This document shows, in pieces, positions 10,853 through 15,233 of a stretch of 64,000 nucleotides of DNA. How positions within the stretch are numbered: the stretch's first letter is position 1; every line of letters begins with the position of its first letter. Source of the stretch: a phage; sequence record PX880099.1; one strand, written 5' to 3'. A program made the position numbers and the translations under genes. The notes under the pieces were generated by a model, which worked only from the letters and a program-made list of their open reading frames with translations, ran no database searches and was not told the DNA's origin.

Positions 10853-11209
10853 ATGAAAAAACTAATCTTAGCCACATTGCTGGCTACCGTAAGCTTCACC
10901 ACTTACGCTCAAAAATTTGTAGCAGTTAAAACAGATATTGGTAAAGATGTTGTGATCACAGGCAACAAGTTTTACTATACACCTGGGAATGGTGTTCTAG
11001 AAGAGTGTAAAGATGTTGAGGCATATACGGGAAAAGAAGATAACACGGAACGTCCTTTTTATTCGATTATAGCTACTTGCAAAAATGAAATAGTAGCTAT
11101 TAAACAATACAAAGATGCCCCTGGAGGAGAATACTTATTAGTCAAGAATATTAAGAGTGAAAAAACTGCAAAGTTTACAGTAATTATTTTAAAAGGAGAA
11201 ACGTTCTAA
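10853..11209 (+). CDS. secreted protein with signal peptide
   Basis: MKKLILATLLATVSFTTYA signal-like N-terminus; SD GGAGGGAAG. Confidence 0.55.
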   Translation: MKKLILATLLATVSFTTYAQKFVAVKTDIGKDVVITGNKFYYTPGNGVLEECKDVEAYTGKEDNTERPFYSIIATCKNEIVAIKQYKDAPGGEYLLVKNIKSEKTAKFTVIILKGETF

Positions 11210-12348
11210 TGAAATACACTATTTTTGGAGATGTAGCTGTTGTAAATAAGGAATATGGCGTTGAAGCTAATAAACTTCCTGCTGGAGTTTGGGTTGTCAA
11301 CTGCGATCCGCACGGTAACTACTCTTTAGTGCGTGGTGAAAGTTTCTCTCTTCCGAACACTCTTTATGGGGAAACTAAAGATCGCGCCGCACATGTTATT
11401 AAAACATTTGCTCGTCGTAGTAAAGAAGGTAAAAATACTGGGGTGTTACTGACAGGGACAAAAGGCAGTGGTAAGACGATGTTAGCTAAACTTATTAGCA
11501 TGTCTCTAATGTCCACAGAAGGTTTAGGTATTCCAACCATTTTGGTTACACAGCCTTACACAGATGCTGGCTTCTTAGAATTTATGAGTAAAATTACAGA
11601 TCGTGCTGTTGTTTTATTTGACGAATTTGATAAAGTGTACGCTAAGAAAGAAGATCAGGAAGCACTGTTGACCTTGTTGGATGGAACAGGAAGTGGGAAT
11701 AAACTTTACATCCTCACTAAAAATAGTGGTTATATCTCGGAATATTTTGTAAACCGTCCTAGTCGTATCTACTACAGTTTCAATTACGATAAACTGTCTA
11801 GTGAAACTATGTTAGATTACTTGGATAAGAACTTGGTAAATAAAAAGCACGTAGATAACTTCCAACGTTTATGGGATGTTAGCACAGAGTTGTCTTTCGA
11901 TGTTATTCAAGGCATTGTAGAAGAATTGAATTTCTATCCAAAAATGACTTTTAAAGAATGTCTTGAAATGATGGGTATTTCTTTAGGGAACGATGCTAAA
12001 TGGAATGTGGCTTCTATCGTAGCTAATGGCAAAACCTTGAAGGTGAATTGGATCAATAACTGGCACGACTTCACCCCTACTAAGTTTTTGTCGGGCGCTT
12101 GTTCCCTGAACATCTATCTACAAAGTTTGAAAGATGATGAAGTGGAAGCAATGGAAACCAACAGTTATGTTATCCTGGATGAAGATGGTGATCCACATAT
12201 TGATCTATGTGCAACGGCTGATGGTCTAACTTGTGATCTGATTGAAGGTGGTAAGATTCTGGTTATGAGCACTACACCAGGAAACACTTTGCGAGTGGTG
12301 CTGGAGCCTGTAACACAACGTTCCACTACACTTGGTAGCGTGTTCTAA
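11209..12348 (+). CDS. AAA-type ATPase
   Basis: 379 aa; Walker A GTKGSGKT, Walker B VVLFDEFDK. Confidence 0.6.
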   Translation: MKYTIFGDVAVVNKEYGVEANKLPAGVWVVNCDPHGNYSLVRGESFSLPNTLYGETKDRAAHVIKTFARRSKEGKNTGVLLTGTKGSGKTMLAKLISMSLMSTEGLGIPTILVTQPYTDAGFLEFMSKITDRAVVLFDEFDKVYAKKEDQEALLTLLDGTGSGNKLYILTKNSGYISEYFVNRPSRIYYSFNYDKLSSETMLDYLDKNLVNKKHVDNFQRLWDVSTELSFDVIQGIVEELNFYPKMTFKECLEMMGISLGNDAKWNVASIVANGKTLKVNWINNWHDFTPTKFLSGACSLNIYLQSLKDDEVEAMETNSYVILDEDGDPHIDLCATADGLTCDLIEGGKILVMSTTPGNTLRVVLEPVTQRSTTLGSVF

Positions 12349-12353
12349 TAAAG

Positions 12354-12378
12354 ATGCCCCGCAAGGGGCATTTGTTAT
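12354..12378 (+). terminator. rho-independent terminator-like hairpin
   Basis: ATGCCCC-GCAA-GGGGCAT followed by TTGTTAT. Confidence 0.5.
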
Positions 12379-12438
12379 GGAGGGATTTTAGTTATTCTTT
12401 TGTTGTAGGCTCGCACTAATAGCTAAAGGGGGGGAGGT

Positions 12439-13899
12439 GTGCCAAAAATAGTCACTTGGGAACAATATAAAACAGATATAAAACAAGCTTATCAAGGTAA
12501 GTCTTGGACTGTTGTAGATTATATTGAGCCGTGGAACGGCAATAAAACTAAACTTAGATGCATCTGTGCTCTGCATGGAGAATGGAAAACAACAAGCATA
12601 AATACCGCTAAACTAGGGAGGGGTTGTCCAGAATGCGGTAGGGAGATTATAAGTAAAGCAGTATCTATAAACAAATCAAAAACCTGGGAGCAATATAAAG
12701 AAGAAGTGCAAACCACTTACAATCAGGCAGGTAAGTTTTGGACTGTTACAGGATGGCACGGAGAATGGAAAGGATGGAATACTAAACTGGTTTGTTGTTG
12801 TGCTTTACATGGGGAGTGGAGGTCTACTTCTATATCTTCTGCGAAAAACGGGAGTGGATGCAGGAAGTGTATGGGAGAAGCAAACAGAGAAAGAACATCG
12901 ATTGCATGGGAGCAATATAAAGAAGAAGTAGAAGAAGCTTATAAAGAAAAACCCTGGATTGTTAGAGGCTATGTGGAACCGTGGAACGGTTCCCGCACTA
13001 AGTTGATTTGTGAGTGTAAGGTTCATGGTCAATGGTGCACTACCACTGTAAACAGTGCTAAACAAGGGACTGGATGCTACAGTTGTCAAAGAGAAATGAC
13101 GAAACAAAGGAATACAATGGAGGATAAACAACATGTTGAAGATTTTATAAAAGCTTGTCCTGATAATGTAGAGCGTAAATATTATCGTAGCGATAGAGTA
13201 GATAGATTAGGTCGTCAGGTTTACTGGATTGTAGAATGTCCTATATGTGCAGAGGATGATTATTGTAAAGAAGGCTTATGCGATAATAAATTTGAGATGA
13301 AGATGAGTCATTTGAAAAGGGGTGGCCTTCCTTGCCGTTGTTCTAAATATTATCATTACACTCCTGAACAATGGGCCTACCGTATGACCAAAGCTTGCCA
13401 GGAACGAGGGGATCAATTTATAGGATTCATTGATAAGGTAAGCAATAACAGCAAGTTTAAATATCTATGTAGGGAGCATGGAGAGCAAACGATCACACCT
13501 ACCGATTATCTCAATGGGAAAGGTTGTCCAGGCTGTAAGAACAGAAATATGCAAGAATTTTACATCAATATTATTCTTGATGAGTACGGAGAAGACACGG
13601 GAGCTTACAAGTTGGGGATTGCAAAGGACAGTGATATCAGGATCAAAGGGCAGAATGCAAACAACAATTACTCTATGCGCCGTATAGCATTGTTCGATCT
13701 GCCGTCCTACCAAGCTTGCAGGGCGTTAGAGAGTAAGCTAAAGTCTAAGACTGATCAGATTCTACCGTCTATTGGCTGTGTAGAACGCTTGCACATGAAA
13801 GATGGTCATAGTGAAACCTTCCTGCGCGAGGATTTGGCTATCGTCTTAAGTGCTATCAACCAAGCAGGTGGAATAATGAGAGAGGAGGAAACATGTTAG
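12439..13899 (+). CDS. cysteine-rich protein with three tandem about 70-aa modules, probable zinc-binding (GTG start)
   Basis: Module WEQYK...EPWNG..TKL.C.C..HGEW.T......G.GC..C repeated three times, then a Cys-rich C-terminal half. Confidence 0.55.
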   Translation: MPKIVTWEQYKTDIKQAYQGKSWTVVDYIEPWNGNKTKLRCICALHGEWKTTSINTAKLGRGCPECGREIISKAVSINKSKTWEQYKEEVQTTYNQAGKFWTVTGWHGEWKGWNTKLVCCCALHGEWRSTSISSAKNGSGCRKCMGEANRERTSIAWEQYKEEVEEAYKEKPWIVRGYVEPWNGSRTKLICECKVHGQWCTTTVNSAKQGTGCYSCQREMTKQRNTMEDKQHVEDFIKACPDNVERKYYRSDRVDRLGRQVYWIVECPICAEDDYCKEGLCDNKFEMKMSHLKRGGLPCRCSKYYHYTPEQWAYRMTKACQERGDQFIGFIDKVSNNSKFKYLCREHGEQTITPTDYLNGKGCPGCKNRNMQEFYINIILDEYGEDTGAYKLGIAKDSDIRIKGQNANNNYSMRRIALFDLPSYQACRALESKLKSKTDQILPSIGCVERLHMKDGHSETFLREDLAIVLSAINQAGGIMREEETC

Positions 13900-14258
13900 T
13901 TGACGTTCAAATTATGCGCAACGAAAGAATGGACTTCTTTGAAGCAGTAGAGAAACATCTGATCAGATGGGACTATGAATTTGTTCCTGCTGGATGTGGA
14001 CCAGTAGAGCATTTAGCGGAAGACGACGATGTATACATGATCATTCGTCAAGTGTACCAGACAGACCAGTGTGAAGAAACTCCCGAACTGATTTTGTTTG
14101 AGTGTAAAGATCTTGCAAAATATTTTGACTATGGCGGAAAAGAGGGTCATAATCTCTCCAGATACAATAAACGTCTACTTATCTTAGACTACATGCGGAA
14201 CAACAAACACAAACTCATCGACGCAGACGCAGTTTATGGCTACTGGTGGATGGACTAA
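13893..14258 (+). CDS. hypothetical protein
   Basis: 121 aa ORF, SD GAGAGGAGG. Confidence 0.5.
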   Translation: MLVDVQIMRNERMDFFEAVEKHLIRWDYEFVPAGCGPVEHLAEDDDVYMIIRQVYQTDQCEETPELILFECKDLAKYFDYGGKEGHNLSRYNKRLLILDYMRNNKHKLIDADAVYGYWWMD

Positions 14259-14271
14259 CAAAGGAGAAACT

Positions 14272-14451
14272 ATGGCACGTTTAGCAGATCATGAAATCTT
14301 TAAACCTATTCTGAACCACTATGATGAACTTAAAGCAGTGTTGGATTGTTATAGAGAGGATGAAGAACGTTTGGAAGTCAATCTTAAGATAGTTCTGATG
14401 AAAGCTTTTCAAGACGGGCAAGCTAAAGTTTTAGAAGGCATGAAAAAATGA
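14272..14451 (+). CDS. small hypothetical protein
   Basis: Start re-picked to ATG (MARLADHE) after AAAGGAGAA. Confidence 0.45.
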   Translation: MARLADHEIFKPILNHYDELKAVLDCYREDEERLEVNLKIVLMKAFQDGQAKVLEGMKK

Positions 14452-14990
14452 GAATAACTGATGAATATGTATTCTTCTTTTCACATAAAGATGTGTTTAG
14501 TAATTGGTATATTGCACCCTTTACAGAAACTGAACCAGGTTACAATGAGACTTTCTGTTGTGTTGAGCAATATATGATGTGGCGTAAGGCTTTGCTGTTC
14601 AAGGATCATGCGATTGCAGCAGCTATCCTTGATCACTCAACTATACGTGACAACGAGAGGAAACAAGCATACTACAAACGTATGGGTCGAGCGGTATCTG
14701 GTTTTAATAATGATATGTGGGAAGAGAACCGTGAGCGTATTGTTATGCGAGGCTTATGCTTGAAATATGTACAGAATCCAGATTTGTATGCAGACTTACA
14801 CCTTTACCAATACAAAACGTTTGTTGAAGCAAATCCTTACGATAAGGTTTACGGTATTGGAATGGGAATGTATGAACCAGGGGTGCTAAACCCTGCTACC
14901 TGGAAAGGGCAGAATCTTTTAGGCAAATATCATAATAAACTGATCGAAATACTTTTCCCAGACAAAATACCGCAAAGACGATATTTGTGA
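14448..14990 (+). CDS. NADAR-domain (YbiA/DUF1768-like) protein, candidate ADP-ribose-processing enzyme
   Basis: 180 aa; FFFSHKDVFSNWYIAPF, CVEQYMMWRKALLF, W..NRERIVMRGLCLKY.QNPDL, GIGMG...W.GQNLLGK match the NADAR pattern. Confidence 0.7.
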   Translation: MRITDEYVFFFSHKDVFSNWYIAPFTETEPGYNETFCCVEQYMMWRKALLFKDHAIAAAILDHSTIRDNERKQAYYKRMGRAVSGFNNDMWEENRERIVMRGLCLKYVQNPDLYADLHLYQYKTFVEANPYDKVYGIGMGMYEPGVLNPATWKGQNLLGKYHNKLIEILFPDKIPQRRYL

Positions 14991-15233
14991 TATTTTAACT
15001 TTTTTCATTTTTAGAACAAAGGTGTCACTTTGTAGCACAGAAATAAGGCTCCTACAGCACCGTAGAGAGCCTGTTATTTTGTCCTATACAAACCCTTGTC
15101 TTTTTCAGTTTGCATCACTAGGATTCGATCTGAGTGGGTTCCTGAAGGTTTACCAATAAGATTAAAGGTTATATCAAATTCCCACTATCTTTTATCTCAA
15201 AAATCCCTCAAATTATTTAAACTTTTTAAGAAT

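Follow-up and report, generated by a model that had tools for sequence, protein, structure and literature searches.

A repeat-variable cassette in a phAPEC8-like phage genome encoding five CapR-type modules and a predicted GIY-YIG-fold domain: a putative modular homing endonuclease

Gene organization and tandem repeats

The 64,000-nucleotide stretch of phage DNA considered here (sequence record PX880099.1, referred to as the window) carries, between a gene for an AAA ATPase and a 121-aa open reading frame (ORF), a gene for a 486-aa protein in which five modules of the CapR family precede a C-terminal domain with a predicted GIY-YIG fold (Table 1). Attention had been drawn to this gene by an annotation that a model made from the letters and ORFs alone (the original prediction), describing a triplicated cysteine-rich module and proposing a tandem array of zinc-binding modules for nucleic-acid recognition, similar to those of certain homing-endonuclease or regulator families. 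This interpretation is supported as essentially right by the present analysis, while the status of the gene as one allele of a variable cassette had been missed. The GTG start assigned to the gene was correct, and the ORF has exactly the extent given in Table 1. Over its 1461 nt, the gene is matched at 99.7-99.9% identity by more than 19 records of phAPEC8-like myoviruses from the genus Phapecoctavirus (Stephanstirmvirinae), ZCKP1, ESCO13, Schickermooser and nieznany among them, and the window itself is a Phapecoctavirus. The same coding sequence (CDS) coordinates are used by RefSeq for ZCKP1, ESCO13 and other phages under the name 'endonuclease'; GenBank depositors mostly chose 'hypothetical protein', and in UniProt the identical ESCO13 protein (A0A1D7XFK1) is listed as 'CapR homology domain-containing protein'. 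In PHROGs, the full-length protein matches phrog_681 'endonuclease' (E = 2.5e-84), while no family match was obtained for it in NCBIfam.

The N-terminal part of the protein consists of three tandem repeats (R1 to R3) with a period of 76 and 74 aa, corresponding to 228 and 222 nt. Smith-Waterman scores between these repeats range from 160 to 195, as compared with 27-30 ± 5-6 in 200 shuffles (z = 21-32), at a protein identity of 51% for R1 versus R2 and 52% for R1 versus R3 and a DNA identity of 66-82% among all three. Hence, R1 to R3 are, as judged from these alignments, genuine repeats and not recent duplicates. The triplication proposed from inspection was therefore borne out, including the significance on self-alignment on which it had been made to depend. 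Likewise, all motifs listed at that time were found, although not all of them in every repeat. WEQYK, TKL and G.GC..C are present in R1, R2 and R3, whereas EPWNG occurs in R1 and R3 with GEWKG at that place in R2, and HGEW of R1 and R2 reads HGQW in R3. The 'C.C' motif, seen as CIC (R1), CCC (R2) and CEC (R3), is only partly meaningful, as across homologues just its second cysteine is kept; in a repeat alignment of 30 homologues this residue is followed by a histidine 2-3 residues on and then by an invariant CxxC. A tblastn search with the protein did not find a second copy in the window.

As a separate observation, codons 159-160 in R3 give WEQYK in the window and WEKHK in ZCKP1, WPEC4 and ASO2A, and the two nucleotide changes involved render the first 23 nt of R3 (12907-12929) identical to those of R2 (12685-12707). 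This may reflect micro gene conversion between repeats.

CapR modules and putative metal ligands

The founding family member CapR represses the capsid operon of PLE, a satellite in Vibrio cholerae. It binds double-stranded promoter DNA in electrophoretic mobility shift assays (EMSA); it carries a CxxC ... 24-26 aa ... CxC arrangement, and a mutant in its four cysteines loses DNA binding (PMC8096241). In a Pfam profile search, the kind of search proposed together with the original prediction, the present protein matches the CapR homology domain (PF21817) in five stretches with 99.7 bits (gathering cutoff 24.2; E = 1.1e-28). This identifies the recognition modules suspected from the sequence as CapR homology domains, for which binding of zinc and of DNA is likely by analogy. 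When scanned singly, the modules score 26.4 (R1), 22.1 (R2), 22.9 (R3), 41.9 (R4) and 38.1 bits (R5), with R2 and R3 thus slightly below the cutoff and with DUF723 and DUF4379 ('probable treble clef zinc finger') as weaker alternatives. R4, the top single match, is also strongly conserved with gp165 of the Vibrio phage ICP1. By pairwise alignment, R5 (segment aa 321-400) resembles R1 to R3 with z-scores of 5.6-9.5, while no similarity to R1 to R3 was obtained in this way for the R4 region (aa 246-320). The homologous modules therefore total five, not three. Accordingly, the second cysteine-rich half noted before does exist; it had been overlooked that this half comprises two more CapR modules and a nuclease domain of GIY-YIG fold.

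Concerning the putative metal ligands, R4 displays the canonical CapR pattern in the form CxxC ... 28 aa ... CxC. In contrast, R1 to R3 and R5 share a variant, C-x2-H ... 15-16 aa ... C-x2-C, which differs from CapR in order and in the use of histidine. Invariant in 25 homologues (33-99% identical) are C193, C213 and C216 of R3, C267, C270, C299 and C301 of R4, and C344, H347, C363 and C366 of R5. In the AlphaFold2 (AF2) model, each module is predicted as a helix, three strands, a short helix and another helix, the last helix carrying the CxxC at its N-terminus, and this predicted fold would be compatible with a treble-clef-like metal site. R1 to R3 additionally match phrog_559 'HNH endonuclease' in PHROGs; hence, the CapR-type module also occurs together with other nuclease types.

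C-terminal nuclease domain

For the C-terminal part of the protein (aa 367-486), Pfam gave nothing above threshold, and a T5orf172 match (PF10544) was absent from the full protein at E ≤ 1. A model of the domain, built from an alignment of 13 homologues, reached a predicted local distance difference test (pLDDT) score of 91 and a predicted template modelling (pTM) score of 0.84 and has the topology beta-beta-alpha-beta-alpha ... alpha, which assigns a GIY-YIG fold to the domain at the level of the structure prediction. In the fold search against BFVD, the top match to the domain was the identical ESCO13 protein under its UniProt name, followed by matches with E-values from 3e-7 to 4e-4 named 'Homing endonuclease', 'GIY-YIG domain-containing', 'Bacteriophage T5 Orf172 DNA-binding domain-containing' and 'Meiotically up-regulated gene 113'; Bro-N proteins are also among the matches. 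A sequence search of the PDB with the protein yielded no match (best FtsY, E = 0.48).

The residues invariant in the same 25 homologues occupy characteristic places in the modelled fold, with Y375 on strand 1, K391-x-G393 on strand 2, R401 in helix 1 and E459 just before the last helix. Tyrosine, arginine and glutamate at these fold positions are the catalytic residues of GIY-YIG nucleases. Judged by fold position, Y375, R401 and E459 would be equivalent to Y6, R27 and E75 of I-TevI, and E459 likewise to E180 of Odn. The latter, which belongs to the T5orf172 proteins, cleaves DNA in vitro, an activity absent from its E180A mutant (PMC8263062). Helix 1 of the domain contains neither histidine nor tyrosine and carries Q405.

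A profile of the domain retrieved 796 clusters at 50% identity from 1.8 billion proteins. Ten of these clusters were scanned with Pfam, and nine displayed one to five CapR stretches, several of them also DUF723 or DUF4379; in two of the ten, sub-threshold matches to T5orf172 or to MUG113 (PF13455; GIY-YIG superfamily) fell exactly at the profile alignment, and one was without a match. Beside these, two metagenomic proteins of 665 aa (P0027 and P0028) contain about eight related DUF723/DUF4379/CapR-like modules and end in a motif, DFFLP...IEYDGEQHF, which may be Vsr/PD-(D/E)XK-like, an assignment that Pfam did not confirm.

Table 1 Features of the endonuclease gene and its surroundings (positions of the window)
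Feature	Position	Strand	Description and basis
AAA ATPase gene	11209-12348		upstream neighbour; Pfam AAA
GC-rich hairpin ATGCCCCGCAAGGGGCAT, then T-rich tail TTTGTTAT	12354-12371	+	sequence and RNA fold; 6 nt past the ATPase stop
Shine-Dalgarno-like purine-rich stretch AAGGGGGGGAGG	12426-12437	+	read from sequence; directly before the GTG
Endonuclease CDS	12439-13899	+	486 aa, GTG start; CapR x5 + T5orf172-like (GIY-YIG fold) putative homing endonuclease
CapR module R1 (aa 5-71)	12451-12651	+	C43-x2-H46 ... C63-x2-C66; Pfam CapR alone E = 7.9e-6
CapR module R2 (aa 81-150)	12679-12888	+	C121-x2-H124 ... C141-x2-C144; Pfam CapR alone E = 1.7e-4
CapR module R3 (aa 155-222)	12901-13104	+	C193-x2-H196 ... 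C213-x2-C216; Pfam CapR alone E = 9.9e-5
CapR module R4 (aa 257-302)	13207-13344	+	C267-x2-C270 ... C299-x-C301, plus C276 and C281; Pfam CapR alone E = 1.2e-10
CapR module R5 (aa 310-368)	13366-13542	+	C344-x2-H347 ... C363-x2-C366; Pfam CapR alone E = 1.8e-9
GIY-YIG-fold (T5orf172-like) nuclease domain, predicted (aa 370-480)	13546-13878	+	Y375, K391, G393, R401 and E459 invariant
7-nt overlap ATGTTAG	13893-13899	+	endonuclease stop / start of 121-aa ORF
121-aa ORF	13893-14258		downstream neighbour
NADAR-domain gene	14448-14990		further downstream

Allelic variation at a constant locus

A search with 4.5 kb around the gene returned 71 phage records, and the allele of the window is present over at least 80% of the query in 23 of these. 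In the remaining records only the flanks align, most of them having an annotated 'endonuclease' of similar gene size in the gap. Four such alleles were retrieved, namely a 332-aa protein with one N-terminal repeat from tuntematon and proteins of 394-402 aa with two repeats from phAPEC8, ukendt and UP17. All four are homologues of the window protein at 33-40% protein identity, and the three-repeat form was seen only in the window allele among the alleles compared. In one-repeat alleles, the only repeat resembles R2 most (64-69%). At the DNA level, the flanks share 94-99% identity up to positions 12351-12378 and again from 13867-13883, while the gene itself barely aligns between alleles, with only short patches of about 70-80%. 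Hence, the variable cassette comprises the intergenic spacer and the ORF except for its last few codons. These codons also serve as ribosome-binding site for the downstream gene and thereby account for the conserved 'EETC' C-terminus.

Comparison of phAPEC8, tuntematon, ukendt and UP17 with each other revealed nuclease domains that are 90-95% identical next to repeats of 38-52% identity. A chimeric protein of 409 aa (P0013) joins repeats of the ukendt type (85-93%) to a window-type nuclease domain (81%), and a metagenomic one in the same slot (P0010) combines a window-like R5 (75%) with a nuclease domain of 50% identity. Another metagenomic protein (P0002, 669 aa) unites the products of two tandem CapR/T5orf172 genes by read-through. 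The alleles thus are mosaics, the modules of which have been shuffled between alleles. A relative at a different insertion site was also found. On a 142-kb Logan contig (SRR30535852) of another phage, a 337-aa family member (P0022; L010, 3001-4014) lies on the opposite strand within a tail-gene module, flanked by a Dit-like tail gene on one side and a gene for 646 aa on the other.

Within the three-repeat allele, a finer comparison is possible. ZCKP1 shares with the window an island of about 3 kb (about 11300-14300), centred on the gene, in which 0-2 mismatches per 300 nt are found against a background of about 96-97% identity, and such an island of near-identity is what co-conversion would leave. 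Comparing the 486-aa alleles of the window with those of WPEC4 and ASO2A, 13 amino-acid differences were counted, all of which fall in R1 to R3 and R5, while R4 and the nuclease domain show synonymous changes only, the numbers being too small for a selection test.

Two further records depart from this picture. In EP57 (OR544956), positions 12339-13880 are gone and the ATPase ORF continues in frame into the 121-aa ORF, giving an annotated CDS of 501 aa. This may stem from a true deletion in the phage or from faulty assembly; the record, 130 kb in size, also lacks 14384-14755 and 15070-15192, and because of these other deletions EP57 was not relied on. In the 161-kb record of phage WPEC1 (PV659873.1), the endonuclease DNA matches seven places with a best coverage of 65%, which could be due to duplication or misassembly.

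Flanking genes and expression signals

The hairpin in front of the gene had been regarded as its own upstream terminator. While a hairpin is indeed present, it is better read as the terminator of the ATPase gene, as it directly follows the stop codon of the latter. An equivalent hairpin in ASO2A is annotated as rho-independent terminator, and a hairpin of one of two sequence types occurs at this site in every allele; a terminator consensus scan flagged only the minus-strand orientation, not a plus-strand terminator. Between the hairpin and the GTG, the promoter scan did not find a sigma-70-like promoter.

Downstream of the cassette, the segment 14300-14900, which takes in a 71-aa ORF and the beginning of the NADAR-domain gene, is a local hot spot of divergence, with 46-58 mismatches per 300 nt to ZCKP1, WPEC4 and ASO2A as compared with less than 20 per 300 nt in its surroundings.

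Proposed function and alternative explanations

The five CapR-family modules, the T5orf172-like domain of GIY-YIG fold, the homology to ICP1 gp165 and the mosaic, repeat-variable nature of the cassette can be considered established. On this basis, the gene is interpreted as a free-standing modular site-specific endonuclease of the CapR/T5orf172 homing-endonuclease-like class, a reading to which we assign a probability of about 70% and in which cleavage and homing are presumed. According to this proposal, the five zinc-finger modules of CapR type, presumably zinc-bound and arranged like beads on a string, would together read an extended DNA target, and the C-terminal domain with its catalytic-type Tyr375, Arg401 and Glu459 would cut nearby. 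Recombination repair with a co-infecting relative would then copy the cassette together with adjacent markers, so that the gene would spread by break-induced recombination. In the fixed slot between the ATPase gene and the 121-aa ORF, very divergent alleles with one, two or three repeats and shuffled modules replace each other. As in homing endonuclease genes (HEGs), a free-standing ORF encoding a nuclease and a DNA-binding domain is found with sharp boundaries between conserved genes, and mobility is suggested by the family member in the tail-gene module, by gp165 in another genus and by the ZCKP1 island.

Several points weigh against this interpretation. The C-terminal domain alone scores only 13.7 bits (E = 0.09) with Pfam T5orf172, for which the cutoff is 20; the sub-threshold alignment is consistent, pairing domain residues 10-95 with profile positions 3-86 of 101, and relatives score 15-19.8 bits at the same place. 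Moreover, although the allele is shared by WPEC4 and ASO2A, no low-divergence island surrounds it there, and since the island was seen in ZCKP1 but in neither of these phages, co-conversion was not used as strong evidence. With a terminator before it, no recognisable promoter and a 7-nt downstream overlap, the gene is operon-embedded and not obviously autonomous. Furthermore, the slot is never seen cleanly empty in the sampled genomes and is instead occupied by divergent alleles, the five retrieved all being homologous and the EP57 record being the one exception. As no clean empty slot was seen, the classical comparison of HEG-plus with HEG-minus alleles fails, and the gene could be kept because it is useful. 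Instead of still homing, it may have been retained for inter-phage or anti-satellite competition or for regulation.

Such a domesticated gene, which would have lost homing and in which CapR array and nuclease would be kept for their usefulness, is regarded as unlikely, although several points favour it. Its conceivable roles include cutting the DNA of competing phages or satellites, as does Odn, degrading host DNA, or repressing transcription in the manner of PLE CapR, and family precedents are given by CapR (PMC8096241) and Odn (PMC8263062). A homologue resides in the slot of every sampled Phapecoctavirus genome, the frame is intact, and the nuclease residues are invariant over very divergent alleles. 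The confinement of the amino-acid changes to CapR modules other than R4 would fit selection on specificity, and homing cannot be deduced from sequence alone, a caveat that Barth et al. raised for the whole class (PMC10448857). On the other hand, PADLOC returned no defence-model match for the protein, and the EP57 record lacks the gene, which therefore may not be essential. Moreover, selfish cassettes produce just such sharply bounded allele replacement, shuffled modules and relatives at further loci, and the conservation of the nuclease domain would be left unexplained by a role purely as repressor. Rather improbable, but compatible with a continuously filled slot, is a permanently occupied 'duelling' locus, i.e. 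an allelic arms race of homing endonucleases instead of invasion of empty sites. Every sampled phage would then carry one of several ancient, mutually divergent CapR-array nucleases, whose DNA-binding arrays, with one to three N-terminal repeats, shuffled modules and amino-acid changes restricted to the fingers, would evolve to cut the slot or the flanks of rival alleles during co-infection. If so, repeat gain and loss would be a means of retuning specificity.

Two other explanations can be given little weight. It is very unlikely that the modules are RNA-binding domains akin to double-stranded RNA-binding domains (dsRBDs, alpha-beta-beta-beta-alpha) and that the protein acts on RNA. AF2 does give each module a helix, three strands and a helix, Pfam lists DSRM_2 with E = 0.069, and the top PDB matches of the whole model in Foldseek, although weak, were TARBP2, Loqs, DRB4 and R2D2 (best E = 3.5e-3, probability 0.44, TM-score 0.10-0.20). 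None of these matches is significant, however, and as the multidomain model has a pTM of only 0.47, the tandem-dsRBD matches were treated as a lead only. In contrast, the CapR match lies above its curated threshold and CapR binds double-stranded DNA in EMSA (PMC8096241). The modules are, in addition, fused to a DNA nuclease fold, and dsRBDs are devoid of a Cys/His metal site. The likeness to dsRBDs in the predicted structures may thus be a distant fold resemblance or coincidence. That the repeats reflect chance or low-complexity resemblance, or that the ORF is not a real gene, is hardly conceivable. No support for this was found, the only oddity being the GTG start with an unusually close GGAGG, and it is refuted by the self-alignment, by the strong Pfam and PHROGs matches and by the family size of 796 clusters; more than 20 near-identical intact copies and confident structure models speak against it as well.

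Novelty and implications

Much of the framework has already been published, including the module family, its pairing with T5orf172, the beads-on-a-string layout, repeat insertions and deletions of about 228 bp, and domain shuffling (PMC8096241, PMC10448857), and both UniProt and RefSeq already have a name for this very protein. An allele series with one, two and three repeats at a constantly occupied slot is a modest addition. In the supplementary tables accompanying the survey by Barth et al. (2023), no Phapecoctavirus names were detected, possibly for the reason, among others, that the nuclease domain stays below the Pfam T5orf172 threshold, and a literature search for 'Phapecoctavirus' together with 'homing endonuclease' gave nothing specific to this gene. 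In terms of annotation, 'hypothetical protein' or 'endonuclease' in phAPEC8-like therapeutic coliphages can be replaced by five CapR modules plus a nuclease domain of predicted GIY-YIG fold, and a recombination hot spot is flagged in these genomes. Moreover, the natural series of alleles, differing in repeat number and shuffled modules between the same flanks, offers a test bed for the specificity of zinc-finger-array nucleases, for which the beads-on-a-string principle has already been published in Vibrio phages (PMC10448857).

Comparison with known systems

Relatives of the protein were detected by tblastn in 355 phage records, 126 of them from Vibrio and 125 from Escherichia phages, including a 'putative homing endonuclease' of ICP1. 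The closest well-described counterpart is ICP1 gp165, which carries this annotation and aligns in BLASTP with E = 2e-30 and 29% identity over aa 175-479, i.e. R3, R4, R5 and the nuclease domain. In Pfam, gp165 matches CapR in four stretches (E = 4.9e-63) and T5orf172 with E = 0.004, and it has been named among five CapR/T5orf172 HEGs of ICP1 (gp165, gp174, gp121, gp53 and gp130; PMC8096241). Several N-terminal CapR modules and a C-terminal T5orf172-type domain are thus common to the present protein, gp165 and its paralogues. According to Barth, Dunham and Seed (2023), 87% of T5orf172 HEGs possess CapR, DUF723 or DUF4379 zinc fingers, often several of them as 'beads on a string', and recombination between degenerate repeats alters repeat number, as exemplified by a 228-bp in-frame deletion in ICP1 gp174 (PMC10448857); the repeat period of about 228 nt found here equals the size of that deletion. 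Differences from gp165 lie in the host phage, an Escherichia coli Phapecoctavirus as opposed to a Vibrio Mohonavirus, and in the presence of five modules with three clear tandem repeats. Also unlike the ICP1 proteins, the N-terminal modules follow the pattern C-x2-H...C-x2-C instead of CxxC...CxC.

With PLE CapR, all five modules share the family match and the two pairs of metal-ligand residues. In contrast, CapR is described as a DNA-binding repressor of transcription that is related only to the N-terminal region of endonucleases, more precisely of the ICP1 T5orf172 proteins presumed to be homing endonucleases (PMC8096241), whereas here five modules are joined to a nuclease domain. ICP1 Odn (gp88) resembles the present protein as a nuclease of the T5orf172/GIY-YIG superfamily with conserved arginine and glutamate and with neither histidine nor tyrosine in its first helix. 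It binds, however, through a RepA_N domain borrowed from the satellite and not through CapR, and it is an anti-satellite weapon, not a homing gene (PMC8263062). Slx1, a structure-specific nuclease of URI/GIY-YIG type, is similar in fold only, with 11-13% identity; it is a nuclease of eukaryotic repair that carries a RING/PHD finger and has Slx4 as partner. I-TevI and the Seg proteins of phage T4 share with the present protein the combination of a GIY-YIG catalytic fold and a modular DNA-binding region, which in I-TevI includes a small four-cysteine zinc finger, and they are encoded by free-standing or intron-borne phage genes between conserved genes. A comparison with I-TevI had already been made when CapR was described (PMC8096241).

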